This document shows positions 36,149-58,721 of a DNA stretch of 64,000 bases, in pieces. The DNA is taken from NCBI GenBank assembly GCA_902780135.1, contig CACZEK010000001.1, positions 64,663 to 128,662 on the forward strand, written 5' to 3'. How positions within the stretch are numbered: position 1 is the stretch's first letter; each line of letters starts with the position of its first letter. Under the pieces are notes generated by a model. The model was not told the DNA's origin. It was given only the letters and a program-made list of their open reading frames with translations, and searched no databases. The stretch comes from an uncultured bacterium (GTDB lineage: Bacteria; Verrucomicrobiota; Lentisphaeria; Victivallales; UBA1829). The position numbers and the translations under genes are program-made.

Positions 36149-36277
36149 TTGCTTACGATTTGCTTACGTTTTTGCGTACATTTTCCCGAAAACAGGGCTA
36201 AAACGGCCCAAAAAACAAGAAAGGAACGGCTGTAAAGCGGATGTAATAATGACTGCACAACTTCACAAAACCGAGGC

Positions 36278-36307
36278 AAAAAAAAGGACTTACGATGTCG
36301 CAAGCCC
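36278..36307 (-). terminator. Terminator downstream of the duplicated tRNA-Met 3' half
   Basis: On the minus strand, GGGCTTGCG...CGTAAGTCC stem followed by T8. Confidence 0.7.
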
Positions 36308-36363
36308 TGAAAAATCTTTGGTAGCGGGGGTTGGAATCGAACCAACGGCCTCCAGGTTATGAG
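36308..36363. repeat. att direct repeat (left junction): 3' half of initiator tRNA-Met plus trailer
   Basis: 56/56 identical to 53852-53907; identity stops at the edge of the anticodon loop (CTCATAA). Confidence 0.97.
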
Positions 36364-36431
36364 GGTACTCATTCTGAGGTCATTTAGAAAGGTAGTTCGG
36401 TTTCTGTTAGGTTACGGGAGTAGTCTGACAG

Positions 36432-37778: not shown

Positions 37779-37791
37779 TCGACAAAAGCCA

Positions 37792-40215: not shown

Positions 40216-40251
40216 GTCTACTCTCCGAAAGTAAAGCAGCCGTCTTTCTGC

Positions 40252-43089
40252 TTATTCCCAGTCTTTCCTTCCGTAGACCTTCAGGACTTCGTCGCCAAGA
40301 TGGTTGATGATCTTCACAGCGATTCTGCCTGTCTCCGGGATGTCGAACGGTCGAGAAAGGTCGCTGTGGATACTTTCCCAGGCATCCTTGTCGATTTCCG
40401 TATTCAGGGTCTTTCTCAGGCTGTCATAGGGGTCTTTCTGTCCCAGGAAGTACGCATGACGCACGAAGAAGCTTTCCTCGTTGTAGTTCGTGTCGATGAA
40501 CCAGCAGGCTATATCCGAGGTGTCTCCGCTGACAACTCGCCCTTCCTGTGGCTTGAAGATGTCAACGCCCTTGATCTTCACCCGGAGCTTACCGCCTTCT
40601 TTCAGGATGTCGATGTCCGGCTCACCGAAGACGACAAAGAGGTTGGCGTTGTTCGTCGTCTTCAGGTCTTCCGCCATGTGAAGGTCCGCGTTGATACGTC
40701 CTTTCAGGATCGGCAGTCTGCCCAGTTTGTTCAGTTCGGAGGACTGTGCATCATAATTGAACGCCAAGGCGATCATCTCGTCGAAACCATTCTCCGATGC
40801 TTCTCTGGCAGCTTCGACCAAATCGGTTCGTGAGACTGTACCGAACTCAGGTCCCAGGAAAATCGCTGCTCGAATCTGTTTGTCTCCACGCATGTACTTT
40901 CCTTCCGCACAGAGCTGCGATCCGGGGAGTGCTTCCAGCGTTTCGAACTCGATTCTGTCCTTCTTATCCATCTGCTGTACACCTGCGATTCGGAGATTAT
41001 CCAGGATCATGGCGGTGAAATCAGCAGCCGGTTTGCAGTCGTAAAGAGCATTCCTCGCGGCTTTCACGTCATTCGTCTGCATCAGGACCAGCGGATCGAT
41101 CAGATTTCCGTCTTCGTCCACGCCAAGCATCCGGTGAGGATCGAGGCTTTCCACCGTGAAGGGACCAGTTACGCGAACAACGGAGTTATCCACATACGGC
41201 TTGTCGTAGAGGTATTCGAACTCTGCATGAGCTGCGATTGATTCGTCGATCTCCTTCTGTCGTTTCAGGCGAAGTTCCCACCAAGCCTCCAATTCCTTCT
41301 GCGGAAGCTTTTTCGCTTCCTTCTCATCAGGACGAGGTACTTCCCATTCCTCCAAGCCACCGAGTTTCTTCCGCAATTCATCCATCTTGGGAGCATAGTT
41401 TTCCCAAATCACATCAATCTCTGAGTTGTTTGCGATACTTTTCAGTGTAACATGAGGAATACGTTCATATACGAAACCGAACCGAATATTGCCGTAGGTT
41501 GGCTGCTCCGAAGGAAGACGGTGCATAATTTCGCCTTCTTTGATCTGACCTTCCCTTGAATCTGCCAGCAGATAGTACGGGAATCTTGCCCCCATGAGAC
41601 GGGCTCGAGCCAAAGCAAGCGCGACACGGCTCGTGTCAATCGTGATCCAACGACGCCCCCATTGTTCCGCGACGTATGCAGTCGTTCCGGAACCACAGGT
41701 CGGATCAAGAACCAAATCACCGGGGTCTGTTGTCATTAGAAGACAGCGTTGGACAATTGAAAGACCTGTTTGGACAACATATATTTTATCTCCACCAAAT
41801 TGGTTTTGTCCAACAGTATCCGTCCAAACATTTGGGATTGGCATTGCAGGAAAATCGAAATAATAACGCACATATCCTATCTTCCCATTGCCACTCACGT
41901 CAAGTCTGTGAGCTTTTTTAAGGCGTTCTATGCCTTCTGCCGAGGTTTTCCAACTTCCTTTTTCGATTGTATGTTTCTTTCCATACAAAAAAATCGGTGG
42001 GCGGGCATTGTCGCCCCCTGCTTGACTTGTAAAATTGTCTAATCCATACAGGCGCATAGAGATTTCTTTTTCTGGAACATAAGCGCGTTTTTCCTCCTTT
42101 TGCCAATTCGAGACACTTATTCTTCTGCCATCGGGGTATTCAAGCTTCTTATATGCAGATGATCCCTCAGCTCCATATACTTTTGTCCTAAAAACCTCGC
42201 GATATTTCATTTTTTCTTTTCCGGCTTTTGAATACCAAAGCACATAATTGCCAACACTGGGTGGAGCCAATAGCTTTGCAGGACTACCTGCTCCTGTGGT
42301 CGTTTGAGTAAAAAGCATTGAAACAAAATTATCGGGTCCAAAAACCTCATCCAGCAGTGCACGAACACGGTGAACATTTTCATCCCCGATCTGAACGAAG
42401 ACGGAGCCGGTATCAGCAAGAAGGTCTCGTGCTATAATCAGACGGTCTCGGAGATAGGAGAGGTAGGAGTGGATACCCTCCCTCCAAGTGTCGCGAAACG
42501 CACGGACCATTTCCGGTTCTCGGGTGATGTCAACTCCATCCTTTTGATTTGGAGACGTGGTAGACCACTGGAAGTTGGAGTTGAACTTGATGCCGTAAGG
42601 TGGATCCATGTAGATGCACTGGACCTGACCACGGAGACCTTCCTTTTCAGCAAGCGACGCCATGACCTGCAGGGAGTCGCCCAGAATCATGCGGTTGGTC
42701 CAATTCTTCTCGTAGTGATAGAAATCCGTCCTGTCGGTTCCTTCCGGAACACCGTTGAAATCGCCGAAGAGATCAGGCGCTTCATCGTTTGCTGCACGTT
42801 CCTTGGTCTCGTTCATAAGGTCGCGCACAATGGTCTGAGGGTGGATTTTCTCCTGGATGTAGATCGGATAAGCCCTGACTTCGAGGGGGTGTTCATCCTG
42901 ACGGTCTTTCCCTCTCCATACAAGCTGAGGATCAAGGTCGGGATTGCGAGGGTATTTGAGTTCAACAGGCGTCAGAGCCATTCTGTCGGCGTAGCTGGAT
43001 TCTTCAGCAGTCGGAATACCGACACGCTTGTCCGGAAACTTGTTGGATACAACGAGCTTCGATTCTGTTTTTTTTCTGCCACGGGGCAT
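40252..43089 (-). CDS. mod: Type III restriction-modification DNA methyltransferase (Mod, beta class)
   Basis: DPPY catalytic motif precedes the DPTCGSGTT SAM-binding motif; start set to MPRG with AAGGAG SD. Confidence 0.92.
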   Translation of the reverse strand: MPRGRKKTESKLVVSNKFPDKRVGIPTAEESSYADRMALTPVELKYPRNPDLDPQLVWRGKDRQDEHPLEVRAYPIYIQEKIHPQTIVRDLMNETKERAANDEAPDLFGDFNGVPEGTDRTDFYHYEKNWTNRMILGDSLQVMASLAEKEGLRGQVQCIYMDPPYGIKFNSNFQWSTTSPNQKDGVDITREPEMVRAFRDTWREGIHSYLSYLRDRLIIARDLLADTGSVFVQIGDENVHRVRALLDEVFGPDNFVSMLFTQTTTGAGSPAKLLAPPSVGNYVLWYSKAGKEKMKYREVFRTKVYGAEGSSAYKKLEYPDGRRISVSNWQKEEKRAYVPEKEISMRLYGLDNFTSQAGGDNARPPIFLYGKKHTIEKGSWKTSAEGIERLKKAHRLDVSGNGKIGYVRYYFDFPAMPIPNVWTDTVGQNQFGGDKIYVVQTGLSIVQRCLLMTTDPGDLVLDPTCGSGTTAYVAEQWGRRWITIDTSRVALALARARLMGARFPYYLLADSREGQIKEGEIMHRLPSEQPTYGNIRFGFVYERIPHVTLKSIANNSEIDVIWENYAPKMDELRKKLGGLEEWEVPRPDEKEAKKLPQKELEAWWELRLKRQKEIDESIAAHAEFEYLYDKPYVDNSVVRVTGPFTVESLDPHRMLGVDEDGNLIDPLVLMQTNDVKAARNALYDCKPAADFTAMILDNLRIAGVQQMDKKDRIEFETLEALPGSQLCAEGKYMRGDKQIRAAIFLGPEFGTVSRTDLVEAAREASENGFDEMIALAFNYDAQSSELNKLGRLPILKGRINADLHMAEDLKTTNNANLFVVFGEPDIDILKEGGKLRVKIKGVDIFKPQEGRVVSGDTSDIACWFIDTNYNEESFFVRHAYFLGQKDPYDSLRKTLNTEIDKDAWESIHSDLSRPFDIPETGRIAVKIINHLGDEVLKVYGRKDWE

Positions 43090-43157
43090 AGTGCTGACTC
43101 CTTGCGTATTTGATTCGGTTTTGTTCCAATGTAGCCTGTTGATTCCGTCTGGCGGTC

Positions 43158-46139
43158 TTATCCCTTCTCCAGAACCTCGTCGATAAATTTCCTGAAATCC
43201 GCCTCGATGTCGAAGAAAGACTCGAACTGGGCGAACCTCCACTGCCCATAACTTCCGAGGTTATTCACCGCTGGAACCCAAAGGTTCTCGGTGGTCAATC
43301 TCTTGTCGTTGACCTGTTCGTTCTTAAAGCCCTTGATCTCGACAATGAGGCGAACGTCGTTGTCGAGGACGACAATGAAATCCGGGAAATAGAGGTGCCG
43401 TTCACCGCTGACCAGATAGGGGATGGAGAATCCGAGGTTATGGTTCTTCACATACGCCTTGACGCGAGGGTGATCTTCCAGAACCCTGCACATCTCTCCT
43501 TCCCAGTCAGAATCCAGTACAGCGTAGTTAATATGGCATCGGGAAGATGTCTCCCAAAGATTGGTTTTTGAGGTCGTAAAGGAAACGTTCGAGGTTGATC
43601 CGGTCGGATTGAACGGATTGATGATGGCGACAGGCCCTCTATTTTCGCTGCCAGGAACCAAAGCATTTGTTATACGCTCACAAGCCCGGTCTGCAAGTGT
43701 TTTGTAGAGGATTTGAGCGGGGTATGCTCCGCCCTTGCAGTGAAGATGATTTTTGACCCAGTCGGAGACAATAGCCTTGGCTTGACCGAAGAGATAAAGC
43801 TCCGGGTCTTCTCCAGGCTTCTTGAAATGCCGTTCAAGAAGGCACTGCGTGAGGTTGTAGATGATGGTGTTCGTACGGACGTTCTGCAAATGTTCGACCG
43901 AAAGAGTGACGCCTTCACCGACCACCGGTTCATTTTTGACCTTGCACGGACCGACTTCTTCAGGAGAAAGCAGGAAATCATGCTCGGGTTTCCATTTCGC
44001 CACGAGCTTGCTGGACTTCATATCGACACGATAGCCGTCAATGTTCGGGAATAGGATTTCCACATCGTTGCGATCAGGTATCACCGCATGAACAGAGACC
44101 ACCTTTCGAGGAGGAACAGGTTTTACAGGGACAGCTTTGCCTGTGAAGTCGAACGGAATACCGAAAATATCCGCATATTCAGCAGGGAACAGCCCGTTTT
44201 GGTCCAGATCATAGTTGGAACGCCTGAGTGCTCGACCAATGACCTGTTCGCAGATCAGCTGTGTACCGAATGCACGAAGACCAAGGATGTGGGTGACGTT
44301 GTTTGCATCCCAGCCTTCCGTCAGCATGGAGACGGAGACAACGCAGCGAATATCTCCGCCAAGCTTGCCTTCTTTTCCAACCGTATTCATGATTTCCCGG
44401 AGGAGATCGGAGTCTGTGAGCTTGTTTGCTTCTTCCGCACTGCCTGTACGTTCGCGGATTTCACGTTTGAACCGCTCGATTTCGTCCTTTGCTGCTGCTC
44501 GGAAATCGTCGCTCAATGCTTCTCCTGATTCCAGCTGCATGCTGTCAACCAGGATGGTACGGGGTTTGGGCAGAGGATTGCCGGATGCATCATAGTTGCT
44601 GAAAAGCGGACATTGCCCTGCTCGAAACGAGGTGTTTTCAGAGAGTTTGTACCCCGAAACGTAGTCGTAAATGAGCTTGGAAATGGCTGTGTTCTGACAG
44701 ACGAAGATAAAGCACGGAGGCGTTGGCATCTTCGCTTCTTCCCATTGATCGAACGTCTTTTCGTAGTGCCCGTACAGCTGGTCAATGGCGGTACACAGTT
44801 CAGCAGGAAGCTTCGCAGGGTCAAGCACTCCTCCGTTCTCACGGTTTTTCTTCGGCATCTGTGAGCCAACATGCTTCCATAGTTCACGGAAAACCGGGAT
44901 TTTGTCTGGATGTGGGTCGTTGTCTGCGACAGGAACACGAGGCAGCTTGACGATACCACACTCGATGGCATCCATGAGAGAGAAATCCGAAACGGTCCAT
45001 GGGAAGAGTTTGCCCTCGGAATAACCGGAACCACGCAGGAAGAACGGCGTAGCGGAGAGATCGACCACACGACACTTCATCTTGCGGTTGACAGCCTCCA
45101 ACCCGGAAATCCAGAGACGTGCCATTTCCTTTCGCTGATTCAGCTCGTCGTTTTCATCCTTCGTCCCTTTGTCCTCTGCCTCATCGTGAGGCTTCTCTCG
45201 ATAGCAGTGATGAGCCTCGTCATTGATGACCAGGATATTCTTGAAGCCCATCAGCTCCGGCATGACCCGTGCAAGCATCTGGCCTTCTGTTTCCTGTGTT
45301 TCGATCTGTGGACCATGACGCCCGTTCAGCAGCGCCTTCGTTCCTTTGGAGAGTTCCAGCAGGTCCTTCCGCTTGAAGACATGGTAGTTCGTGATGACGA
45401 TCTTCGCCTTCATGAGTTCGTTGGCGTAGTCCTGCGGAATAAGCTCGCGTCTCAGGTAGTAGGAATCTGGATCGTTGGGTTGCAGTACACGCAGCCTGTC
45501 CTTGATCGTCAGTCCAGGTGCAACGACCAGAAAACCCTTCGTGAAATACTTGCTGCTTGGATGTCGTACAGCATTGACCGTCTGCCAGGCGATAATCATC
45601 GCCATGACCGTTGTTTTTCCTGCTCCTGTAGCGAGCTTCAGGGCAATACGGTACAGGTCAGGGTTGGCGTCTTCATTACCGGTCTTGATGTGTTCGAGGA
45701 TGTCCTTCCATTGCTTGTTGCCGGGTGCAACCTCAGTGAGCCAGATCAGGACCTCGACAGCTTCGATTTGGCAGAAGAACGGACGTTGATTCAGGAAATC
45801 GTGTGTTCGCCAGTGATGAAGCAATCGTGCAGTCTCAGGCGTAACACCCCACTGCCGTTCCGGAAGATTGCGCCATGCAGAAACGGCGGTACGAATACGG
45901 TTGATCCACTCGTACTCTGCGTACTGTTGACCGTCTTCAACATCGTCAAGCTCGAACTCGGTCTGAACGTAATCATCTCCGGTGGAGTGCTTCGCCCTTG
46001 CCACTGGGGATGTGTACGAAGCTTTCCGTCGTCCTTCCTCAATCACGTTCGTGGGCTGGCCTGTGTCGTCCAGCATCCAATGGCGAGTTGGGATTTCATA
46101 CGGGGAGTTCAAAACCGGACTGTCGAAAAACTCTGCCAT
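43158..46139 (-). CDS. res: Type III restriction endonuclease (Res, BPTD_3080-like family)
   Basis: ATGAGKT, NDEAHH, LSATP, LTEGWD, EQVIGRALR helicase motifs; YFPDF...IVEIKG PD-(D/E)XK nuclease. Confidence 0.92.
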   Translation of the reverse strand: MAEFFDSPVLNSPYEIPTRHWMLDDTGQPTNVIEEGRRKASYTSPVARAKHSTGDDYVQTEFELDDVEDGQQYAEYEWINRIRTAVSAWRNLPERQWGVTPETARLLHHWRTHDFLNQRPFFCQIEAVEVLIWLTEVAPGNKQWKDILEHIKTGNEDANPDLYRIALKLATGAGKTTVMAMIIAWQTVNAVRHPSSKYFTKGFLVVAPGLTIKDRLRVLQPNDPDSYYLRRELIPQDYANELMKAKIVITNYHVFKRKDLLELSKGTKALLNGRHGPQIETQETEGQMLARVMPELMGFKNILVINDEAHHCYREKPHDEAEDKGTKDENDELNQRKEMARLWISGLEAVNRKMKCRVVDLSATPFFLRGSGYSEGKLFPWTVSDFSLMDAIECGIVKLPRVPVADNDPHPDKIPVFRELWKHVGSQMPKKNRENGGVLDPAKLPAELCTAIDQLYGHYEKTFDQWEEAKMPTPPCFIFVCQNTAISKLIYDYVSGYKLSENTSFRAGQCPLFSNYDASGNPLPKPRTILVDSMQLESGEALSDDFRAAAKDEIERFKREIRERTGSAEEANKLTDSDLLREIMNTVGKEGKLGGDIRCVVSVSMLTEGWDANNVTHILGLRAFGTQLICEQVIGRALRRSNYDLDQNGLFPAEYADIFGIPFDFTGKAVPVKPVPPRKVVSVHAVIPDRNDVEILFPNIDGYRVDMKSSKLVAKWKPEHDFLLSPEEVGPCKVKNEPVVGEGVTLSVEHLQNVRTNTIIYNLTQCLLERHFKKPGEDPELYLFGQAKAIVSDWVKNHLHCKGGAYPAQILYKTLADRACERITNALVPGSENRGPVAIINPFNPTGSTSNVSFTTSKTNLWETSSRCHINYAVLDSDWEGEMCRVLEDHPRVKAYVKNHNLGFSIPYLVSGERHLYFPDFIVVLDNDVRLIVEIKGFKNEQVNDKRLTTENLWVPAVNNLGSYGQWRFAQFESFFDIEADFRKFIDEVLEKG

Positions 46140-46676
46140 GGGGTGTCCTTATGCTTTCTCCGTTCGTTTGAGGTCGGAGTGTTGCCGTTCATGTTGAAGC
46201 TGATTGTGCAATACTGTACTACAATCTATATATAAAATCAAGAAAATAGTTTCGATTTTAAAGTTCTTTTTGCGATAATCGTCTGAATATAGCCGTGTGA
46301 TACGGTCCAGACAAGTGAAAACAGAGCCATCTCCAGCATGAAATATCCCGTGGGAAAGGTATTGTTAAGCTCGCAGTAATCTATCATCAAAAAAACTGTA
46401 AGCACATAGAAAGTGCATTTTCAATATATTAAATTACCGTATTTACAATATATAGTCTGTTCAGATATCTTTTGGAATTGCATATTTTGTATTTAAAAAT
46501 GCAGTTTTGACTATGAGGAATGCATAGTACATTTGTTTTAATATAAGGACATATGCGCACATGCGCGTTATTAATATCCACTCTGAAATGAAACAGGAGA
46601 GAGAGTAGATGGCACAGATACGCACAGGATACAAGCGCAGTCAACATGACCCTCATCAAAGCAATCAGGAAGGATC

Positions 46677-46716
46677 AGGGGCTGATGCAGAATCTCACAG
46701 GCATGCATCAGCCCCC
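46677..46716. repeat. Perfect 13-bp inverted repeat, 14-nt loop
   Basis: AGGGGCTGATGCA / TGCATCAGCCCCT. Confidence 0.85.
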
Positions 46717-47093
46717 TTTCCAACCTCTCCGTCCAAAAGGTTATTCGTCTTCGTAAAAGGTGCTGTCCAGCATTGCTCTGGAGATTTCAGATCCATGTGC
46801 AGAACCTTTCGAAAAACATTCCCTGGCTTTTACCCTGTCTATCTCGTATTATGTACTCGTCACAAAATATTTTAGCCAAGTGAAGTAACTGTTTTCCGGG
46901 AATGGCGTTCTATAGCATTTGGATATATATGACAATGGTGAGTCATAAAGACACGAATATTTTCGGAAGTGTCTTCTGCGTTGAATACAACAATCCGCCA
47001 AACTTGATAGGATGTCCAGATGAGGCAAACATCGCCTTTGTCTGCAATCTTTCACCAAGTTAAACATAACTTTAACCAAAAGAGAAAAACAGT

Positions 47094-47204
47094 ATGGAAA
47101 AAGAAATTGATTCGAACAGAATGCTGGAAATTGCCACAGGAACATTTATCGCTATGTTGGCGTATGGAGTCATCAAACTTATCATCAGGTCTCTGTGCGA
47201 TTAA
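47094..47204 (+). CDS. 36-aa single-TM peptide (not in the ORF track)
   Basis: MEKEIDSNRMLEIATGTFIAMLAYGVIKLIIRSLCD, followed by an 11-bp hairpin. Confidence 0.45.
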   Translation: MEKEIDSNRMLEIATGTFIAMLAYGVIKLIIRSLCD

Positions 47205-47224
47205 ACTCAAGGCAGTTCTCCACA

Positions 47225-47255
47225 GTCCTACCGGATAGAATATCTCCGGTAGGAC
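47225..47255. terminator. Hairpin between convergent small ORF and YagK-like gene
   Basis: GTCCTACCGGA / TCCGGTAGGAC perfect 11-bp inverted repeat. Confidence 0.6.
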
Positions 47256-47338
47256 ATTCCAAATATTTGGATCAGTTTTATCTTATTAACAAATGTATTT
47301 CTTTTGATAATTAATACACCAGTTCTGAATGCAAGTGA

Positions 47339-47881
47339 TTATCTTTTTATTCTGGAAGTGAAGAAAGTTTTTCCTTTAACACCTTCTTTTTGATCTGTTT
47401 TTGCCAGATAGCTTACTTGACGCTGTGCTTCATGTAAATCTGTTAAATCAGGATTATCTCGGTGAATCATAATTCCATTTCTATGTCCATCGTTACAATA
47501 ATGAACTGAACCACCTGGTCCTACAGTATTCTGAATGACTTTTTTCATGTTTTCAAAATGCGGATAAGTACTTTCTGTTTTTTCCCCATTCACGAATAAT
47601 ACCATGTGATAGTGGACTTTACCTTTTGAGCTTATTTCTCTTGCTACGATATGCGCAGGAGCATAGCCAGCATTTTTCTCTTTTTCAATATACCGTTTGT
47701 TAATTCTTATAATAGCTTCTTGCTCTGTTCCTTCTGGAAGATGTATATCCTCTCTTATTACAAGCGTTTTAGCGTGTTCGTTAATATAGTTATTCATGAG
47801 TTTGAAAGATGCTTTTAGAATCTTTTTGTTCATTGGGATATTGAGAACACTTGCAGTTGAAAGAAATTCATCATCGTTCAT
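47339..47881 (-). CDS. YagK/YfjJ (inovirus Gp2-like) HUH endonuclease domain protein
   Basis: KTLVIREDIHLP, ARE...HYH (HUH), NGIMI, SYLAK (catalytic Tyr), KTFFTS. Confidence 0.8.
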   Translation of the reverse strand: MNDDEFLSTASVLNIPMNKKILKASFKLMNNYINEHAKTLVIREDIHLPEGTEQEAIIRINKRYIEKEKNAGYAPAHIVAREISSKGKVHYHMVLFVNGEKTESTYPHFENMKKVIQNTVGPGGSVHYCNDGHRNGIMIHRDNPDLTDLHEAQRQVSYLAKTDQKEGVKGKTFFTSRIKR

Positions 47882-48137
47882 ATATTTTTCCTCATTAGAT
47901 TATTTCGATTGTTATATCTGTTGATATTTAATAGAGAAGATCGTTTAATAGAGTGTTATATAGTAATATATATTATCCTTTCCCTTAGACGGGTAAAAGC
48001 CATCTTAAAATAATTGATGTTTTGAATGAGACATCAAGTTTTAGGTGTATATGACACATCGGCATATAATAATATTAATCATGTAAAGATTTATTATCTT
48101 ATACAAGTTATCGTCACACAAAAAAGGAGCATTAAAT

Positions 48138-48611
48138 ATGGACAACAATGAATCCAACCCGTTAGAAAGAATAGGAGAACTTCTTGAACAATATCTGAAC
48201 ATGTTTGGCCAGGCCAGAGTAGCTTTTTATTCAATTCCACTTTTTGAAGATCCTGAAAGCTATTCCAATTACATGAATTCCTTCACGTCTGCTTTAAGAC
48301 GAGCGAATTGCCGCCCAGCCTATGCGATGTCCTATAATTCCAACAGAGGATGTAGAAACATTCTTTTGATTGTTCAGGGATACTTCCGGAACGATATGAA
48401 CGATGTCACGGATGCAGCTCAGAGGATTATGCAGCTGTACTCCCCATTTCCAATTCAGTTTATAGCTGATCTTCCGATGAATTATGCCACGCTAGATCAG
48501 GACAAAATGAGAGTATTCGACGCCATCAACAGAATAGGTTTTCTTCCTTCATCTCCTCAAAGGCTTCTGCCTCCGCATACACGAACTTTTGCCATTTCAA
48601 AACTCTATTAA
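48138..48611 (+). CDS. Degenerate YagK/YfjJ-like paralogue lacking HUH and Tyr
   Basis: Colinear similarity to 47339-47881 (PAY, ILLIVQG, RTFAISK); catalytic residues absent. Confidence 0.55.
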   Translation: MDNNESNPLERIGELLEQYLNMFGQARVAFYSIPLFEDPESYSNYMNSFTSALRRANCRPAYAMSYNSNRGCRNILLIVQGYFRNDMNDVTDAAQRIMQLYSPFPIQFIADLPMNYATLDQDKMRVFDAINRIGFLPSSPQRLLPPHTRTFAISKLY

Positions 48612-48802
48612 AAGTCCTAAATAGCGGAAAAACGAGTAAAATTAGACAAAAAAAGGCGTTTTTAAGCTATTTTTGAGCATATTTTTGCCATAAAAGCCTG
48701 TTTTTTACCTTAAAAACGATTATCAAGGGAATTTAAGCATATATTCCTCCACCGAATATCAAAAATTGACATTTCACCACTAACCCTATTTTGGAGGTAA
48801 CA

Positions 48803-50341
48803 ATGCAAATTCCCGTAATCAAAAACGAATTGGCCGGAGCCCTGTCGGCTCTGGGGAAGCTGGTCTCCCGGACGTCTCTCATCAAGGCGTATCAGGGGAT
48901 CGAAATCGAAGGCAAAGCGAACATGCTTTACTTCAGGACCCGAAACGTGATTGAGCAGATCGAATTCCGGCTGTTTGCCGACCTGGAAAATGATTTCCCG
49001 GCAATTCTCGTGGAGTTCGAGCAGTTCCGTCAAGCGGTTCGTAACTGCAAGAACAAAACGCTGAAGTTTGAGATTGACTGTCGCGAGGTCTTCATCGACG
49101 ATGTCAAAATGGCTCCTGTCAAAGGGAGTTTTCCACAGAAGGAACAAGTCCCGGATCAAGATATCTGCGTCATGGAGCTTCCTTCTGACACGCTTTCTGC
49201 GCTGTCTTTGCTCGCTCCTATCACCGACCGTGACACGAATGCCAACAAACGGGCAGATACCCGTAGGATTCTCACGGGAATCAACATCAGCGGAGATGGA
49301 TTCACCGCCACAGACGGCAAAGAACTCTCGAACATCCCTCTCAAGCTCGGAACGAATGGAAGCATCACGATTCCATTTCCCCTTGCCTTGCTTGCGACCA
49401 AAGCCTTTGGCGAATCCGGTCGTCTTTGCACATGGCAGAAGAATGAAGACACGCATTTCGATCTTACTCTCGGCGAATGGACGTGGTCTGGCAAGGCTCT
49501 CAACGGAAATTATCCAAAATGGAAACAGATCGTGTCTGAACGAACAGATGCGACGCATTATGTGAACATTCAAGATGACCAAGCTGAACATTTGATGCGT
49601 TATTTGAAAAGCATCCCGGATGATCCGAGGAACTTCAACAGCGTTAAGGTCAGCCGTCTTCCTGATGCTCCGGGCAATCTCCACCTCGAAAGCTCCAACG
49701 GCATGCTGTTCAATATCCATGCCGAGTTCGATCCGAACTGGAACGGTTTAGCGTTCAGGGTCAGAAAAGAATTCCTTCTGCATCTGCTGGATGCTGGACA
49801 TCGGAAGATTGAACTCAACGATGAGTTAAGTCCGATTGTCGGAACAGGTGGCTGTGGCAAATATATCACAATGCCCATTCGTTCCGCAAAACCGAAACAG
49901 GAAGCGTCCAATCAAATGGAAACACAGACCAATATCCATCCTGAACAGGACGAGCCTCAGACCATCCGAGAAGAAGAGGAAACTGTTTCCGTGCAGAATC
50001 CACCTCACCCGCAGGAAAGCACCCCTCAAACCCCCATTCCCAATACCAACCTCAACAAGGAGAACCCCACTATGGAAACCAACAACATCACCCACGTCGA
50101 GTCTGCTCCCGTTCAGACTTTCACCCCGAATCATGAATCTGCAAAGGCGTTGCCTTCGATTGACGAGCTGATTGCCGGCATTGAAGCGTTCAAGTCCACA
50201 CTGAAAACGCTGTCGGATGAATCCGCCGTCATGAGCCGCAGAATTCGCGAGTTCGCTCTTGCGCAGAGACAGAAAGACCGCGAATACAAGCAGACCAAAC
50301 GCACACTTGATCGTGTTCGTGTTGCAAGCGGAGCTGCCTGA
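48803..50341 (+). CDS. DNA polymerase III beta-clamp (DnaN)-like protein with C-terminal extension
   Basis: TRRILTGI, TATDGKEL, KALNGNYPKWKQIV, KEFLLHLL, KYITMPIR ending at residue 360; GGAGG SD. Confidence 0.8.
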   Translation: MQIPVIKNELAGALSALGKLVSRTSLIKAYQGIEIEGKANMLYFRTRNVIEQIEFRLFADLENDFPAILVEFEQFRQAVRNCKNKTLKFEIDCREVFIDDVKMAPVKGSFPQKEQVPDQDICVMELPSDTLSALSLLAPITDRDTNANKRADTRRILTGINISGDGFTATDGKELSNIPLKLGTNGSITIPFPLALLATKAFGESGRLCTWQKNEDTHFDLTLGEWTWSGKALNGNYPKWKQIVSERTDATHYVNIQDDQAEHLMRYLKSIPDDPRNFNSVKVSRLPDAPGNLHLESSNGMLFNIHAEFDPNWNGLAFRVRKEFLLHLLDAGHRKIELNDELSPIVGTGGCGKYITMPIRSAKPKQEASNQMETQTNIHPEQDEPQTIREEEETVSVQNPPHPQESTPQTPIPNTNLNKENPTMETNNITHVESAPVQTFTPNHESAKALPSIDELIAGIEAFKSTLKTLSDESAVMSRRIREFALAQRQKDREYKQTKRTLDRVRVASGAA

Positions 50342-50484
50342 TTCATCCCTGCATCGTCTCCTCCCGACATGGATTTGAACTTAAATTTAGGCTACAATTT
50401 TTATTGTAATAGTTATTATACATTATATAGTCAGAGCTATTTTGCTTCGAATACATTAACCACAACCAACACAGGAGAAATGCC

Positions 50485-50913
50485 ATGGCAAAAACTCTCG
50501 AATTATTCTATGCAATCAAAAACGGTCAGCCATCTGTCCAGATCCATGTCACAGAGATCGTCGAAGGAAACATCAAGGACAAGCTCCAGGAGATGATGAA
50601 CGATCTGCCTGGGCCAATCGCCGAGTCATTGAAAGGAGTCCCACCAGCACGCCTTATATCGGACGATGAGGTGAATGTGCAGGATGTTTCTGTTCCGAGC
50701 AAGAAGACGTCAACGCCAAAAAAACAACCATTCCAAGCAGGGATCGGTGAAACAATTACCGAACGGCAATTATATTGCATCAAGAAACACCTGGAAAAGC
50801 AAAACCTTGACGAAACCGCTTATTGTCAGTCGTTTGGCGTGAATCGACTGGAAGACCTCCCCAAAAGTATTGCTACTGACATTGTTAGCGAGATTAAAAG
50901 TAAGAAGTACTAA
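50485..50913 (+). CDS. Hypothetical protein, paralogue of 51208-51672
   Basis: AGGAG SD; C-terminal ITERQL...FGVNRLEDL...IVSEI helical domain. Confidence 0.75.
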   Translation: MAKTLELFYAIKNGQPSVQIHVTEIVEGNIKDKLQEMMNDLPGPIAESLKGVPPARLISDDEVNVQDVSVPSKKTSTPKKQPFQAGIGETITERQLYCIKKHLEKQNLDETAYCQSFGVNRLEDLPKSIATDIVSEIKSKKY

Positions 50914-50939
50914 CCTCACCATTCAACATAGAGGATTTA

Positions 50940-51110
50940 ATGATGCAAGCTAAAATTAACGTATCGATCCCGCTGGAACACTGCGAGATCATGTTCGGTC
51001 TGGTGGATACACTCGAGCAAAAAAACGAAAACGATCCAAAACTTGTGGCGATGATCGACCTGATCCAAAAAATCGTTGAGCGGTATATGAACGCCAAAGA
51101 AAAACACTGA
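50940..51110 (+). CDS. 56-aa hypothetical protein (not in the ORF track)
   Basis: GAGGA SD; MMQAKINVSIPLEHCEIMFGLVDTLEQKNENDPKLVAMIDLIQKIVERYMNAKEKH. Confidence 0.6.
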   Translation: MMQAKINVSIPLEHCEIMFGLVDTLEQKNENDPKLVAMIDLIQKIVERYMNAKEKH

Positions 51111-51146
51111 AACCAATAAACCAAAATTCATCGAATAACCTCCCGA

Positions 51147-51177
51147 ATGACCACGACGGCCTGCCCGTCGTGGTCAT
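51147..51177. repeat. Perfect 13-bp intergenic hairpin
   Basis: ATGACCACGACGG-CCTGC-CCGTCGTGGTCAT; no T-tract. Confidence 0.85.
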
Positions 51178-51207
51178 GCTTTAACCTCAAATCGAAAGGA
51201 AATCACT

Positions 51208-51672
51208 ATGCTCAAACTCAACACCGCATATGCAAAGAAAGTCCCAGCCGATGCTGACTATTCCAGCCAGTCGTACCACGTCTCCATGGAAATCGAACTT
51301 CCAGACGGACTCACGCCTGACCAGATCAATGCGAAAATCCACGAAACCTTCGATCAGCTCCGAAACAGCGTGGAGGCCGAATTAAAAGGAAATCCTGTGC
51401 CTTATCAGACGGCTTCTCTTCCGATGGAAAACGCCCAGAACTCCCAGCAGGTGGCTTCTGCACTGCAGCAGAAAAATTACGGTAAGAGGAACGGCACGAC
51501 CTCTGATGCTCCGGCATCTCCCAAACAGATCAAGTATCTCCTCGACCTCGCAAAGATGTACGGCGTTTCGCCCGATCAGATCAAGGTCAAGTTCAACGTA
51601 TCCTCAGTCGAAAGCCTGACCAAAATTCAGTGTTCCAAAGCCATCGACGAGCTCAACGGAAAGGCGGCGTGA
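51208..51672 (+). CDS. Hypothetical protein, paralogue of 50485-50913
   Basis: AAGGA SD; C-terminal ASPKQI...FNVSSVESL...AIDEL domain. Confidence 0.8.
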   Translation: MLKLNTAYAKKVPADADYSSQSYHVSMEIELPDGLTPDQINAKIHETFDQLRNSVEAELKGNPVPYQTASLPMENAQNSQQVASALQQKNYGKRNGTTSDAPASPKQIKYLLDLAKMYGVSPDQIKVKFNVSSVESLTKIQCSKAIDELNGKAA

Positions 51673-51674
51673 AC

Positions 51675-52466
51675 ATGGAACGTGAAATTGAATCCATCCG
51701 CGATACGCCTCACTGGTCATACAGCGCGTTTCAGACCTATCTCGCCTGTCCCATGCGATATTACTTCCGGTACATCGAACATGCCGAGGTGGAGCGTACT
51801 AACGTCAGTATGCCGTTCGGAAGAGCGTTTCATGCGATCTTGAGCATCCGCGCGAAGAAGGGCATCTGTTACACGCTGGAAGACGCAAAGGAGGATTTTG
51901 CAGTCTATTTCCGAGGTGAAACTGAAGCAAGCGAAAACATTTCGTACAAGCCTGATGAGGACTACTGGTTCTGGAATCAGCGTGGCTGCGACATGCTGGA
52001 CGTGGCTCTCGCAGAATGGCCCGACGACTACAGCGTGAAGTCTGTTGCCGAAGCTTTCAGCGTGGAAGTGCCTAGTCTCAGCAAGCCCCTGGTCGGAGAA
52101 TTTGACCTTGTTACTGTTGACGGTGGAGACGAGACCATTTGCGACTGGAAGACTGCTTCTATGAAGTGGCCGAACGGAAAGGCAGATCGTGATCTTCAAG
52201 CGACCGTTTTCACCTACGCCTATCAGAAGAAGTATGGAGAGAACCCTCTGTTCCGGTTTGACGTGTTCACAAAGGCAAAAACGCCTGCTCATCACCAGTT
52301 CTACACGCTCAGAACTCAGGACGATTTCGACCGTTTTGTTTACCTCGCCGGGAAGATCGAGAAGGCCGTCAACACTGGTATCTTCCTTCCGGTCGAATCC
52401 TGCATCAACTGTGCCGAATGTGCTTACAGCAGCCGCTGTAAAGCTGCTCACAGGAAGGCAGCGTGA
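51675..52466 (+). CDS. PD-(D/E)XK nuclease, Cas4/AddB-like with Fe-S cysteines
   Basis: WSYS...LACP, GEFDLV, ICDWKT, Q...Y, C-terminal CINCAECAYSSRC. Confidence 0.88.
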   Translation: MEREIESIRDTPHWSYSAFQTYLACPMRYYFRYIEHAEVERTNVSMPFGRAFHAILSIRAKKGICYTLEDAKEDFAVYFRGETEASENISYKPDEDYWFWNQRGCDMLDVALAEWPDDYSVKSVAEAFSVEVPSLSKPLVGEFDLVTVDGGDETICDWKTASMKWPNGKADRDLQATVFTYAYQKKYGENPLFRFDVFTKAKTPAHHQFYTLRTQDDFDRFVYLAGKIEKAVNTGIFLPVESCINCAECAYSSRCKAAHRKAA

Positions 52467-52469
52467 CGC

Positions 52470-53198
52470 ATGGGACTGATTATGCAAGAAGGCAAGTTTG
52501 TCAGCAGAGACGAAGTTGCTCATGTTGACACCCCCTGTTCAACCGCCACATGGCGACCAATTCCCCATATTGACGTCATCGACGCTGTGACAAAAGTCGT
52601 CCGAGCCCATGACTGGGAAATCGAGGGTGAAAAGTTTGGTCTTGCCAGAGAAGGACAGAAGATGTTCGGAGTAGTGGAAATCTCCCGTTCATCCTCACCG
52701 GAATGGCATCGTTGCATTGGGATTCGTAACAGCCACGACAAATCCTTTGCTGTTGGGCTGTCTGCTGGAATCGTCGTCTGTGTCTGCACGAACATGGCAT
52801 TCGGTGGTACAACGGTAATCAAACGTCGCCATACAAGCGGTATTGAACTCGCTGAACTCATTGACCGGGCTGTAGCCTCTCTCGAAGACGATTTCCTGAC
52901 AACCGAAACCGTATGCGAGGATATGAAGGACCTCTACCTCAAAGACGATGACGAGGCTCGGAGTTGCATCGTGCGTGCTGCCGAACTTGGCGTTATCAAT
53001 TCGTCCGACATTCTCCCAGTCTATCGTGAGTTCAAGGAACCTTCGCATGAGGAGTTCAGAGAACCGACACGCTGGAGTCTCCTGAACGCGTTTACAGAAA
53101 CCGTGAAGAAATACTCGCCTCAGCGTGTGGATCATTCCTACCTCGCTTTGAACAGAGCCTTCGGCCTGGACGGTCGTCAAGCAGCGATCTTCGCCTGA
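52470..53198 (+). CDS. DUF932 domain protein
   Basis: TATWRPIPH, IGIRNSHDKS, VCVCTNMAF, WSLLNAFTE. Confidence 0.85.
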   Translation: MGLIMQEGKFVSRDEVAHVDTPCSTATWRPIPHIDVIDAVTKVVRAHDWEIEGEKFGLAREGQKMFGVVEISRSSSPEWHRCIGIRNSHDKSFAVGLSAGIVVCVCTNMAFGGTTVIKRRHTSGIELAELIDRAVASLEDDFLTTETVCEDMKDLYLKDDDEARSCIVRAAELGVINSSDILPVYREFKEPSHEEFREPTRWSLLNAFTETVKKYSPQRVDHSYLALNRAFGLDGRQAAIFA

Positions 53199-53225
53199 AA
53201 AAAGCTCAATCTGAATTCAGAAATT

Positions 53226-53269
53226 GTTCAGTCGGGGTAGAGGCTTTGTTGCCTCTACCTCGATTGAAC
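53226..53269. repeat. 19-bp imperfect hairpin ending the clamp operon
   Basis: GTTCAGTCGGGGTAGAGGC / GCCTCTACCTCGATTGAAC (two G-T pairs). Confidence 0.75.
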
Positions 53270-53354
53270 TCAAATTGAACACAAATCTTTTTGGAGGGGA
53301 AAAATGTTCACCAGAAAAAACAGCTTCATCCCACAAGAACCACCCGCTGACGCT

Positions 53355-53447
53355 ATGAAATGGATTGGACGGCTTCTGCTGACAGTAGTTGCCGGGATCA
53401 TCCTCGCCAAGTTCGGCGTTCGTCTTCCTGATAACATGAAGCTGTAA
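53355..53447 (+). CDS. 30-aa hydrophobic peptide (not in the ORF track)
   Basis: MKWIGRLLLTVVAGIILAKFGVRLPDNMKL; no obvious SD. Confidence 0.4.
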   Translation: MKWIGRLLLTVVAGIILAKFGVRLPDNMKL

Positions 53448-53822
53448 TACCTTGGAGAAGTCGTAATCGGCTTCTCTTTTTTGGTCAGGTAGCGGTTGTT
53501 GGTTTTTGTCTTGTGAATTTGGGTGATGATCTGTCCACACCCGTTATAATCGAAGTGAAAACGCAAGGTAGCAGGTCCCGTATAAACCGATGGCGGGTTG
53601 ACCCGTCTTGCAAATAACCGCGCGGATCCATCCTGTCGTTTGTTGCGGGGGAGAGAAAAGGTAGCTCGTCAGGGCAAAACCTGCTTGACTTTTCCTGAAA
53701 ACGTGTTAGGTTATTGTTAGGTTATCGTTAGCCTAACAAGGGCCAAACTGCCGTTTGGAACGGTTCCAAGCGGTAAAAAAATACCTACAATAGCGTTCTT
53801 CCCAACTTCGCAAAACTGAGGC

Positions 53823-53850
53823 AAAAAAAGGCCATCCGTGACGGACAGCC
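53823..53850 (-). terminator. Element-supplied terminator for tRNA-Met
   Basis: Minus strand GGCTGTCCG-TCA-CGGATGGCC followed by T7. Confidence 0.75.
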
Positions 53851-53851
53851 A

Positions 53852-53907
53852 TGAAAAATCTTTGGTAGCGGGGGTTGGAATCGAACCAACGGCCTCCAGG
53901 TTATGAG
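53852..53907. repeat. att direct repeat (right junction)
   Basis: Identical to 36308-36363; overlaps the intact tRNA. Confidence 0.97.
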
Positions 53908-53937
53908 CCTGACGAGCTACCTCTGCTCTACCCCGCA
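53863..53937 (-). tRNA. Initiator tRNA-fMet(CAT)
   Basis: 75 nt, CAT anticodon, unpaired 1:72, A11-U24 pair (initiator hallmarks), encoded CCA. Confidence 0.9.
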
Positions 53938-54951: not shown

Positions 54952-56262
54952 TGATATGCATAGGGTTTTTTGGACAGTTCCGGATGGAATTCCAAAATGC
55001 CCTTTACTTTTTTTCGGCCTCGAACTTTCGCTCCGCCTCGCATGGGGTCATCATCCCCAACCTCTGATGAGGTCGCATGTTGTTGAAAAACTCCACGAAG
55101 TCCAAAACATCTCGCCGCAAATCCTCCAGAGTGTCGTAGTAGTTGTGGGAAAGTTCTTCCCTCTTCAGACATGCAAAGAAGGATTCCATAACTGCATTGT
55201 CCAAAGGTGTTCCCGGATTTGAAAACGACTGTTTAACTCCAAGGTCCCGCAAATGCTTGCGGAATGCGTATGCGGTATACTCCGTTCCCTGATCGGAATG
55301 AAAGGTCAAGTGATTTGGTCGATTCCGTTTTTCGTATGCAGAATCAAAAAGCCTTATCATGAAACTGGCACTGGTATTTTCCGTGACATCACAGGCTACC
55401 ACCACGCGAGCAAACAGGTCAATGATGACGGCGACGGAGCACAAGACATCTTTGACATAAACATTGGAGAAATCGCTCACCCAAACGAGATTCGGAGCCG
55501 CTGTCTGAAACTTGCGTTGGACTTTGTTACGATAATACTTGTACTTCCGATTAGTCGTTGAATAATAACGGAGTCGCACTTGCTTGCAGACCAGCCCCAT
55601 TTCTTTCATGAGTCGGGAGATATGTGCTTCGCTGACCTTATATCCTTTTCGTTTGAGTTCATGTTTGATTTTCCGTGCCCCAAATCGTTCTCGGCTATCG
55701 AAAAAGATTTGCTTCACGATGGGACGAATCTTGTCATCATTGAGTTCATACCATTTTCGAACAGGAGCGCGTAGTTTGTGATGATAGTATGTCGATCTTA
55801 AAACGCCTAAAGAATTGCACAGGATATAAACGGAATAATCGGATTGCATCTGGTCAATCGCTGCAATTTTATACTCCAGAGGAACTTTTTGTAACAATCC
55901 ACTGCGATGAATAATTTCATTTTCCGTCCTGAGAGTTTGTATTTCCCGTTCAAGACGGTAAACATCCTCCGGAGTAACAGTGCGACGACATTTTCGCTTG
56001 ATTGGGGTATATTTCTGGATCCAGTTATACGCAGTGCTTTTACAAACACCAAACTTTTTACATAGAGCTGTGACTGGTGTCCCCGCACGGTACAACGCAA
56101 CAAGTTTCGCTTTTTTCTTATCAGTTTTCATGCTTGTTTAACCATTCATGATGAAGACTATGTCAAAAGCACTTATCATACAGAAACCTTTTCTTGTTCG
56201 TTTTTGTTGAGTTCAATGGTCATGTCTATTATTGTAATATATCCAAAATCCCGTTGATTACA
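54952..56262 (-). mobile_element. IS3-family insertion sequence (far end uncertain)
   Basis: TG-N18-GGACA IS3-type end at 54952; weaker candidate partner ends finishing at 56182 or 56262. Confidence 0.7.
55004..56131 (-). CDS. IS3-family transposase (OrfA-OrfB in one frame)
   Basis: HTH N-terminus; WVSD, FHSDQG, DNAVMESFF...KRE DDE triad. Confidence 0.93.
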   Translation of the reverse strand: MKTDKKKAKLVALYRAGTPVTALCKKFGVCKSTAYNWIQKYTPIKRKCRRTVTPEDVYRLEREIQTLRTENEIIHRSGLLQKVPLEYKIAAIDQMQSDYSVYILCNSLGVLRSTYYHHKLRAPVRKWYELNDDKIRPIVKQIFFDSRERFGARKIKHELKRKGYKVSEAHISRLMKEMGLVCKQVRLRYYSTTNRKYKYYRNKVQRKFQTAAPNLVWVSDFSNVYVKDVLCSVAVIIDLFARVVVACDVTENTSASFMIRLFDSAYEKRNRPNHLTFHSDQGTEYTAYAFRKHLRDLGVKQSFSNPGTPLDNAVMESFFACLKREELSHNYYDTLEDLRRDVLDFVEFFNNMRPHQRLGMMTPCEAERKFEAEKK

Positions 56263-57386: not shown

Positions 57387-58721
57387 ATGCAGATTTCCAG
57401 ATTCCTCTTTCATGACCTGATGCAATGGAAACGCTCCAAAGACAGAAAACCGCTTATCCTGAACGGGGTCAGACAGTGTGGCAAGACCTGGCTTCTTAAA
57501 GAGTTCGGCGACAAGGAGTTCAAGTCACATTTGTATTTCAACTTTGAAAAAGACGCCAGACTTGCGTCTTTCTTCGGAGACAACCTCGACCCCAAAAACA
57601 TCATTCAGCGTCTTGAAGCTTTTACCGCCACAAAGATTGTTCCGGACAAGACGCTCCTGATATTCGATGAGATTCAGACGTGTCCGCGGGCTTTGACGTC
57701 ATTGAAATACTTCTGTGAAGATGCACCGGAATACATGATTGCCGCTGCCGGTTCTTTGCTTGGGCTTTCCCTGACGAAAAAGACAAGCTTTCCAGTTGGC
57801 AAGGTTAAGATTCTCGACTTGAGACCATGTTCGTTCAAAGAGTTCCTGAATGCCGTGGAACCTATGCTCAACGAATTCATAGAGAACGTTCCCCTTGAAC
57901 CGATTCCCGAAGCTTTTTCCGATAAGCTCGCCAACTATCTCCGGGAGTATCTTGCGTTTGGAGGAATGCCGGAACCCCTTTCGACATGGATCGAAACTCA
58001 TGATGTGGAAAAGACCGATGATAAACTCGACATCGTTTTGAGAACATATGAATCCGACTTTTCCAAACACATTCCGATCAGTGACACGCCGAAGTTGTTC
58101 GGCATTTGGAACTCCATTCCCGCCCAATTCGCCCGCGAAAACAAACGCTTCTTCTACAGCGAAGTGCGCGAAGGAGCAAGAGCCAGAGAGTTTGAAGACG
58201 CACTGCAATGGCTTCTTAATGCGTCAATGGTTCACAAAGTTCAGATGGTCAATCATCCGGAATTGCCGCTTCTTGCATATGTCGACCGGAAGATCTTCAA
58301 ATTGTATCTTGCGGACGTCGGTGTGCTTCGCAGACTTGCCGCTCTCCCGTCAGGACCGATTCTGAACAGTCAGGATGTTTTCAGCGAGTTCAATGGGCGT
58401 CTTGTGGAGAACTATGTCGTGGAACAGCTTCAATCCATGCGGATTTCCCCGATATGCTATTGGACCAGCGAAACCGGAAGAGCAGAGGTCGATTTCCTGA
58501 TTCAGGACTCCGAGCGGATTGTTCCCATTGAAGTGAAATCCGGAACCAATGTCAAAGCCAAGTCGCTTCATGTTTATCGCGAGAAATACAAACCGGAGGT
58601 GTCGGTTCGGACATCCATGCAGAATCTCAGACTTGATGCCGGTCTGCTGAATGTTCCGCTCTACCTTATGGGGGAATTCCCCAGGCTCATGGAACTTGCT
58701 AAGGAACGAGTGCGGGCCTGA
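57387..58721 (+). CDS. AAA_14 ATPase + DUF4143 protein
   Basis: GVRQCGKT, IFDEIQ, AAGS, FGGMPE, YLADVG, AEVDF...IEVKSG. Confidence 0.9.
   Translation: MQISRFLFHDLMQWKRSKDRKPLILNGVRQCGKTWLLKEFGDKEFKSHLYFNFEKDARLASFFGDNLDPKNIIQRLEAFTATKIVPDKTLLIFDEIQTCPRALTSLKYFCEDAPEYMIAAAGSLLGLSLTKKTSFPVGKVKILDLRPCSFKEFLNAVEPMLNEFIENVPLEPIPEAFSDKLANYLREYLAFGGMPEPLSTWIETHDVEKTDDKLDIVLRTYESDFSKHIPISDTPKLFGIWNSIPAQFARENKRFFYSEVREGARAREFEDALQWLLNASMVHKVQMVNHPELPLLAYVDRKIFKLYLADVGVLRRLAALPSGPILNSQDVFSEFNGRLVENYVVEQLQSMRISPICYWTSETGRAEVDFLIQDSERIVPIEVKSGTNVKAKSLHVYREKYKPEVSVRTSMQNLRLDAGLLNVPLYLMGEFPRLMELAKERVRA

Follow-up and report, generated by a model that had tools for sequence, protein, structure and literature searches.

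The window analysed here is a stretch of 64,000 nucleotides (nt) from an uncultured bacterium of the Victivallales (GenBank assembly GCA_902780135.1, contig CACZEK010000001.1, positions 64,663 to 128,662 of the forward strand). It contains a 17.6-kb integrative island (36319-53907), and the six co-oriented open reading frames (ORFs) at 48803-53198, at the tRNA-Met/attR end of this island, are the subject of this work. They encode, in order, a homologue of the bacterial beta sliding clamp, three small proteins named by their length (p142, p56 and p154), a predicted iron-sulphur (Fe-S) nuclease and a DUF932 protein (Table 1). An earlier sequence-only reading had correctly placed six co-oriented genes at the distal end of the island and had listed the small proteins in the order 142, 154, 56; p56 in fact precedes p154. 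The conserved unit is four genes, for the clamp, p154, the nuclease and DUF932, and the small paralogues are optional. Each end of the island carries an identical 45-nt sequence in direct orientation (36319-36363 and 53863-53907), which corresponds to the 3' part of tRNA-Met, and the GC content changes from 0.60-0.68 in the flanks to 0.37-0.52 within it.

Gene products of the operon

The clamp homologue was recognised by TIGR00663 over domains I-II (E 6.9e-15; 54.9 bits, below the curated cut-off of 137.65) and by the processivity-factor family phrog_947 (2.7e-11). Of the Pfam clamp models tested (PF00712, PF02767 and PF02768), those for domains I and II gave E values of 0.06-0.1, and the relative in locus L098 reached 5e-5 for domain I. 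The profile of the family matched the beta clamp 6dj8 in the PDB. An AlphaFold2 (AF2) model had a predicted local distance difference test score (pLDDT) of 57.8, with domain II poorly modelled. The best 50 of the 475 Foldseek matches of this model (E <= 0.001) were all bacterial sliding clamps at E ~1e-16, with alignments of ~390-420 columns over the full length of targets of 360-395 residues, and three tandem clamp domains are supported by the model. After the body of ~342 residues come a variable disordered linker (residues 343-452) and a long basic helix (453-509) that is conserved. Relatives retain the motifs NYPxWKxVVP and MPIR, which in bacterial clamps such as E. coli beta line the partner-binding cleft. 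More than 120 full-length clusters were found at 61-96% identity, and a tblastn search of plasmid and phage records gave no match.

The core small protein, p154, has a highly conserved N-terminal region of ~60 residues, a disordered low-complexity linker rich in Q and P, and a GemA/DUF3072-like C-terminal region of ~50 residues. No family was matched above threshold, the N-terminal domain was without any match, and a search of PDB sequences with the p154 profile gave nothing meaningful. The C-terminal ~50 residues resemble the second half of Mu GemA (PF06252), which was found on 8 of 28 family members (best E 2.8e-4, 22.2 bits against a cut-off of 27), and DUF3072 (PF11272) reached 13.3 bits against a cut-off of 27.5. 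Every match of the family lay under the family cut-offs, and the recurrent likeness serves as no more than a lead; what GemA itself does biochemically is poorly defined. The C-terminus of the p154 family was -AA in 20 of 28 diverse members and at least -A in 26 of them (window 51664-51672); the clamp (…SGAA) and nuclease (…RKAA) of the window also end in -AA. Such ends resemble an ssrA-type ClpXP degron and, by analogy, may point to regulated proteolysis.

The sequence-only reading had described p142 and p154 as full-length paralogues, which had to be revised. BLASTP detected no similarity between them and single-sequence hhalign a weak one; hhalign of the p142-type proteins against the p154 family gave 97% probability (E 1.8e-11), with the match confined to the C-terminal 55 columns. 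A third paralogue type of 123-128 residues, present in loci L001, L006, L007 and L008, aligned with the p142-type over near full length (E 1.4e-13) and with p154 over the C-terminal domain (E 6.5e-6). The small proteins thus form a set of paralogues united by a common C-terminal domain and are not full-length twins. Between none and two small paralogues lay between the clamp gene and p154 at each locus. p142 was missing from many loci, and its identity among relatives was only 22-48%, against 41-94% for its neighbours. For p56, jackhmmer found no homologue in 97 loci, and its N-terminus was weakly similar to the 123-128-residue type (hhalign E 6e-4, probability 28%); on these two grounds its sequence is probably a truncated N-terminal remnant of the third paralogue.

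The description of the fifth product as a Cas4/AddB-like nuclease stood. It matched PDDEXK_1 (2.1e-22, 80.7 bits against a cut-off of 22) and phage exonuclease PHROGs (9e-16). In 69 sequences the four cysteines of the motif C25...C246-x2-C249-x5-C255 were 100, 100, 100 and 99% conserved, and the catalytic motifs GEfD, DwKT and QAt.f.yA were also conserved. It is predicted to be a Cas4/AddB-type Fe-S nuclease because of the PDDEXK_1 match, the four cysteines and the catalytic motifs. It shares with CRISPR Cas4 the PD-(D/E)XK fold, the C-Xn-C-X2-C-X5-C and QxxxY motifs and matches to Cas4 models, which in PADLOC were generic Cas4 models only (8e-12). It differs in scoring 34.9 bits against the cas4 equivalog TIGR00372, below the cut-off of 65, and in being always paired with DUF932 and p154. 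As had been stated from the sequence, Pfam scans of island ORFs of at least 120 residues detected no polymerase, clamp loader or Cas1, and no CRISPR-like array was present within the island; Cas2 domains were likewise not seen in the Pfam scans of the larger ORFs. A remnant of CRISPR adaptation was ruled out, there being no Cas1/2 and no array. The records of the nearest phage relatives of the nuclease label them Cas4 or RecB-like exonucleases; they align over the full length at 23-25% identity, and in the two phage genomes examined the relative is encoded directly 5' of the genes for ERF, an annealing protein, and for replication. No similarity was detected between the window nuclease and the RecE-like exonuclease of Salinibacter phages, or between p154 and gp55, the small neighbour of that exonuclease.

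The DUF932 assignment was likewise sustained: PF06067 was matched with 47.5 bits (cut-off 23) over profile positions 7-224 of 227, and all 120 listed homologues carry PF06067. H33, R60, R86-N87-S88, D90 and H121 are invariant and H89 nearly so, and the C-terminus has a conserved FGLDG tail. The AF2 model (pLDDT 77.5, predicted template-modelling score 0.66) had no significant Foldseek match in the PDB (best E 0.3), and there was no Rad52, Redbeta or RecT structure among the PDB matches listed. In BFVD its matches were confined to phage proteins of the uncharacterised types DUF932, DUF945 or TIGR03299. Salinibacter phages have a DUF932 gene that adjoins genes for a RecE-like exonuclease, a single-stranded DNA-binding protein (SSB) and ERF. 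DUF932 also occurs in E. coli K-12 cryptic prophages. A search of the literature on DUF932, PF06067, YfjQ, YafZ and clamps encoded by elements yielded no functional work, save one preprint on selection. There, a DUF932 gene on an integrated plasmid of Variovorax is reported to be under strong selection following exposure to phage, and a role in phage defence is proposed (bioRxiv 10.1101/2025.06.20.660599).

The gaps between p154 and the nuclease gene and between the latter and DUF932 are 2 and 3 nt, in agreement with the spacing given in the sequence-only reading, and the last three genes are translationally coupled. Longer gaps follow the clamp gene (143 nt) and p56 (97 nt), and a perfect hairpin lies between p56 and p154. 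The hairpin directly 3' of DUF932 is likely to be the end of the operon. A GC-rich hairpin was found at this place in most related loci despite differing sequence, followed in many by a T-run, and this recurrence fits a discrete transcription unit. A promoter scan found 17 sites where 11.2 +/- 3.0 were expected, which is no clear excess over chance.

Table 1. Features of the operon and of the island that carries it, in window coordinates.
Feature	Position	Strand	Basis or remark
Divergent beta sliding-clamp homologue, 512 residues	48803-50341	+	TIGR00663, phrog_947, Foldseek
p142, optional small protein	50485-50913	+	Variable N-terminal domain; C-terminal ~50 residues homologous to the p154 C-terminus
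p56, short ORF, non-conserved	50940-51110	+	jackhmmer finds itself only
13-bp perfect hairpin between p56 and p154	51146-51180	+	RNA fold -26.7 kcal/mol, z = -5.4
p154, core small protein	51208-51672	+	1582 clusters; 762 representatives at the 50% clustering level
Cas4/RecB-family PD-(D/E)XK exonuclease, predicted Fe-S	51675-52466	+	PDDEXK_1, phage exonuclease PHROGs
DUF932 protein, 242 residues	52470-53198	+	PF06067, 2.6e-12
19-20-bp hairpin directly 3' of DUF932	53226-53269	+	-42.4 kcal/mol, z = -7.3
attL	36319-36363	.	Exact 45-nt copy of the tRNA-Met 3' part; left boundary; direct repeat D1, 36279-36363 vs 53823-53907
Tyrosine integrase of the element	36432-37778	+	Pfam Phage_integrase, 5.3e-25
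807-residue AAA_25 P-loop protein	37792-40215	-	AAA_25, E 3.4e-4; C-terminal part alone, 5.4e-5
Type III restriction-modification cargo	40252-46139	-	Mod 40252-43242, Res 43158-46139
180-residue YagK/YfjJ_C / REP_ORF2-G2P-like protein, H-Y-H motif	47339-47881	-	Pfam PF11726, 5.6e-6; PF23343, 2e-5
157-residue protein, no family assigned	48138-48611	+	Homologues 46-63% identical directly 5' of the clamp gene
47-residue hydrophobic ORF	53304-53447 (with terminator to 53477)	+	T-run terminator-like hairpin 53454-53477 after it
11-nt repeat TGTTAGGTTAT, 2.5 tandem copies and an inverted copy	53704-53748	.	~115 nt inside attR
tRNA-Met (CAT)	53863-53937	-	ARAGORN, Rfam, direct repeat; 3' 45 nt = attR, right boundary

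Conservation of the unit and its place in related elements

A set of 95 related loci was annotated, 15 of them found via the clamp and 80 via distant relatives of p154, and synteny was counted over the loci whose contig had room for the gene. The clamp gene lay 5' of p154 in 35 of 35 loci, the nuclease gene 3' of it in 55 of 55, and DUF932 3' in 40 of 40. A conserved order of all six genes, as envisaged from the sequence, did not survive, p142 being optional and p56 unique to the window; the order of the four-gene core did. Identity to the window was 22-76% for the clamp, 39-77% for p154, 41-87% for the nuclease and ~47-94% for DUF932 in linked loci, against 29-30% for unlinked phage and plasmid copies of DUF932. 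Because identities range over 22-94%, the loci are not near-identical copies of one element. Four database proteins among the p154 representatives (P0296, P0316, P0376 and P0377) are fusions or frameshift read-throughs, some of p154 with the nuclease and others of part of the clamp with p154; they indicate independently that these genes adjoin one another in other assemblies too.

The genome matches were metagenome-assembled genomes (MAGs) of rumen Victivallales/Lentisphaerae, as expected for the Planctomycetes-Verrucomicrobia-Chlamydiae (PVC) host that the sequence-only reading had supposed. The same element recurs across several rumen metagenomes, and one MAG (RUG12414) holds three diverged copies (L005, L008 and L009). 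The operon is mosaic: between the window and L005, DUF932 is 94% identical and the clamp 70%, and this pattern indicates, from sequence comparison, recombination between co-resident elements. No relatives of p154 or the clamp were found in a scan of IMG/VR, and none in phage and plasmid records. The family is so far known mainly from uncultured rumen Victivallales.

The cargo differs from element to element: Type III restriction-modification (R-M) in the window, and elsewhere Type I R-M with Thoeris, a set of SNF2, HEPN, DUF4391 and methylase genes, a reverse transcriptase, Card1 or Cas3. The operon lies within a few kb of the integrase gene in relatives, and the two directly abut in several loci. 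In L098 it heads a co-directional string that ends with genes for AAA_25, YagK/YfjJ_C and AlpA-type HTH_17 proteins and adjoins the integrase. Loci L001, L005, L008 and L098 have a homologue of the AAA_25 protein encoded 3' of DUF932 and in its orientation, and the YagK/YfjJ_C-like protein was kept 5' of the operon, with 17 such ORFs among related loci. Two more distant loci, L038 and L054, have a D5_N/DUF5906/PriCT_2 primase-helicase gene just 5' of the operon on the same strand. Immediately 3' of DUF932 in L001 is a DUF4942 methyltransferase-like gene. Because the operon, the integrase and a replication-type gene recur while the cargo varies, the operon is regarded as part of the element's own machinery.

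Other features of the island and its flanks

The 807-residue AAA_25 protein is a putative replicative helicase of the element and a backbone gene; its N-terminal half has no family assignment, a search of PDB sequences gave no meaningful match, and it is the sole candidate of primase-helicase type in the window. The YagK/YfjJ_C-like protein is a putative Rep-type initiator. Between it and the restriction gene lies an AT-rich stretch of 1.2 kb (46140-47338, GC ~0.37) with no convincing ORF and with several short inverted and direct repeats, which could be an origin or regulatory region of the element. The Type III R-M system was identified by PADLOC (MTase_III 1158 bits, and a REase_III match) and by Pfam (N6_N4_Mtase and ResIII). 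Its Res and Mod frames as listed overlap by 85 nt (43158-43242), which may reflect a later true start of Mod or real coupling.

The 157-residue protein, encoded ahead of the clamp gene in a single subfamily of the elements, had no family match in Pfam, PHROGs or NCBIfam. The 47-residue hydrophobic ORF has homologues in L001 and L008 (50-62% identity) and may be a small membrane protein. The TGTTAGGTTAT repeats are candidate arm-type sites for the integrase or an excisionase. The att repeat reaches past its 45-nt tRNA core at 87-88% identity (36253-36318 against 53798-53862), so the island carries its own diverged copy, ~65 nt long, of the sequence downstream of the tRNA; this suggests that attP derives from a related chromosome, or that tandem integrations happened earlier. 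No conjugation or oriT machinery was visible, and an Rfam scan detected three tRNAs only. Just outside the island, an IS3-family transposase (rve, HTH_Tnp_1) by a tRNA-Ala gene and an AAA_14/DUF4143 ATPase were found (55004-56131 and 57387-58721); a gene similar to this flanking ATPase sits within the related element L099.

Reading of the operon and comparison with known systems

The four genes are read here, tentatively and with somewhat less than even confidence, as one transcription unit in the backbone of tRNA-integrating elements of rumen Victivallales with a P4/CP4-57-like layout, forming a clamp-centred module for replication and recombination. Its service to the element would most likely fall after excision or entry. 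The gene identities, the strict co-linearity, the backbone status and the linkage to integrase and primase-helicase genes were observed directly; for the scheme that follows we infer every physical interaction and the biochemical roles of p154 and DUF932. The initiator and the primase-helicase of the element would open the excised circle. The element clamp would then be loaded, probably by the host clamp loader, and would tether the host polymerase, serving as a sliding platform for the exonuclease as well. The exonuclease would resect DNA ends or flaps, with DUF932 and p154 as its accessory or mediator proteins in place of a phage annealing protein and SSB. The optional p142-type paralogues, which share the C-terminal domain of p154, could modulate or compete for the same partner.

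Several observations weigh against this scheme. The clamp scored 54.9 bits against the required 137.65 and its domain II was weakly modelled, and ring formation and loading are accordingly putative. Locus L010 has the core and an integrase with no detectable Rep or AAA_25 gene, so the link to a dedicated helicase is not universal. In scans of Pfam, PHROGs and NCBIfam, no annealing protein (RecT, Redbeta, ERF, Rad52-like or Sak4), SSB or polymerase was found in the operon. DUF932 is without a structural relative in the PDB, and its invariant His, Asp and Arg residues suggest an enzyme and not an annealing protein. The fast evolution of p142 fits a function in conflict at least as well. A classical pair of exonuclease and annealing protein was ruled out, no annealing protein having been found.

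Fortuitous co-location of unrelated mobile-element genes was considered, since mobile elements often carry a DUF932 gene or a solo Cas4-like nuclease and the 143-nt and 97-nt gaps permit separate transcription. It is very improbable and was ruled out by the invariant synteny: the order held in every long-enough relative among the 95 loci despite deep divergence and mosaicism, and the last three genes are translationally coupled. The dedicated DNA-processing module proposed in the sequence-only reading was upheld to the extent that the core is co-inherited in invariant order and is neither a chance assembly nor a CRISPR system; its anti-defence side is less favoured by the context. Under that alternative, which we consider unlikely, expression early on entry or induction would shield the element DNA from host nucleases and restriction. 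The clamp would be a decoy for the partners of the host clamp or would compete for them, the ends of the element would be processed by the nuclease and DUF932, and p142-type proteins would inhibit host defences. The optional and hypervariable nature of the p142-type among more conserved neighbours speaks for it, as do the DUF4942 methyltransferase-like gene next to DUF932 in L001 and the fact that, in E. coli islands of the CP4 type, DUF932 genes lie near those for anti-restriction proteins and RadC; the degron-like -AA end of the p154 family would suit a short-lived early protein. Set against these, none of the proteins matches a known anti-defence family in Pfam, PHROGs, NCBIfam or PADLOC, the core proteins are strongly conserved and not diversifying, the operon is linked to primase-helicase genes, and the absence of visible conjugation or oriT machinery leaves no leading region defined. 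The gene context favours replication and recombination over anti-defence because in relatives a primase-helicase of D5/PriCT or AAA_25 type stands in the gene string and ERF stands beside the phage relatives of the nuclease.

It is similarly doubtful that the unit is a clamp-guided interference system, in which a dedicated clamp, loaded onto foreign or replicating DNA, would bring in the Fe-S nuclease to destroy that DNA, for example in a satellite acting against its helper phage. The defence systems carried by the elements, the matches of the nuclease to PADLOC Cas4 models, the selection on DUF932 in Variovorax after phage exposure (bioRxiv 10.1101/2025.06.20.660599) and the three diverged copies in one genome would agree with it. 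Yet the true defence cargo changes between elements and the operon does not, as is characteristic of a backbone function; a sensor, ATPase or toxin-like effector of the sort found in defence systems is absent; the clamp and p154 lack relatives in IMG/VR, phage or plasmid records; and the clamp, p154 and DUF932 lack PADLOC matches. A more specific proposal, which appears distinctly improbable, is a clamp-dependent DNA-processing machine for conflict, in which the coiled-coil-tailed clamp would deliver the Fe-S nuclease and a DUF932 enzyme via the GemA-like adaptors p154 and p142. Here the p142-type variants would be specificity or competitor subunits, and the machine would serve not ordinary replication but the destruction of a helper phage or rival element, or the disarming of the host. 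If true, it would give the DUF932 family its first function.

DUF932 is a large family on phages, plasmids and integrative islands to which no function is assigned. The Fe-S exonuclease, private clamp and GemA-like protein that invariably accompany it here provide concrete partners and assays for its study. The unit is unusual in this obligate link of DUF932 to the exonuclease and in having, on an integrative element of small size, a beta-clamp homologue with a tail; to our knowledge, no such element has been described with a beta clamp of its own. If the clamp is functional, elements of ~15-20 kb can assemble a part-private replisome or use the clamp as a targeting platform. The elements move R-M, Thoeris, Card1, Cas3 and reverse-transcriptase cargo, and their backbone helps explain the spread of defence islands in an uncultured PVC lineage.

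In PADLOC-DB v2, the clamp, p142, p56, p154 and DUF932 had no match to any listed system, and no named system with this gene composition was found, as the sequence-only reading had also failed to recognise one. The window clamp resembles DnaN and the phrog_947 processivity factors in its three-domain fold, in the matches of its domains I and II to hidden Markov models, and in retaining the NYPxW/YKxV(V/I)P and C-terminal MP(I/M)R motifs. It is unlike DnaN in scoring well under the DnaN cut-off, in its C-terminal extension of ~170 residues made of the disordered linker and the long conserved helix, and in being encoded on a 17.6-kb integrative element in which no polymerase or loader was found.

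Phage modules of an exonuclease and ERF or RecT, often with SSB (Geobacillus phage TP-84 gp53-gp54; Bacillus phage vB_BpsM-61), have an exonuclease with which the nuclease aligns over its full length and which heads a string of recombination and replication genes, and in Salinibacter phages DUF932 stands directly by the exonuclease, SSB and ERF. The window operon differs from these modules in lacking a recognisable annealing protein or SSB, positions that are filled by DUF932 and p154, and in containing a clamp gene, a linkage not seen in the phage examples examined. P4-like satellites and the E. coli islands CP4-57 and CP4-6 share with the elements a tyrosine integrase at a tRNA gene and a variable defence-gene hotspot. 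YagK/YfjJ-family and DUF932 proteins are further points of likeness in the window, and relatives add an AlpA/Vis-type HTH_17 protein and a primase-helicase. Genes by which P4-like or PICI-type elements hijack a helper (capsid size redirection, packaging) were not recognised in the PHROGs scan, which was not a dedicated search. We know of no clamp or Cas4-like nuclease in P4 or CP4-57, and the window element further differs from these islands in its host, a PVC bacterium.

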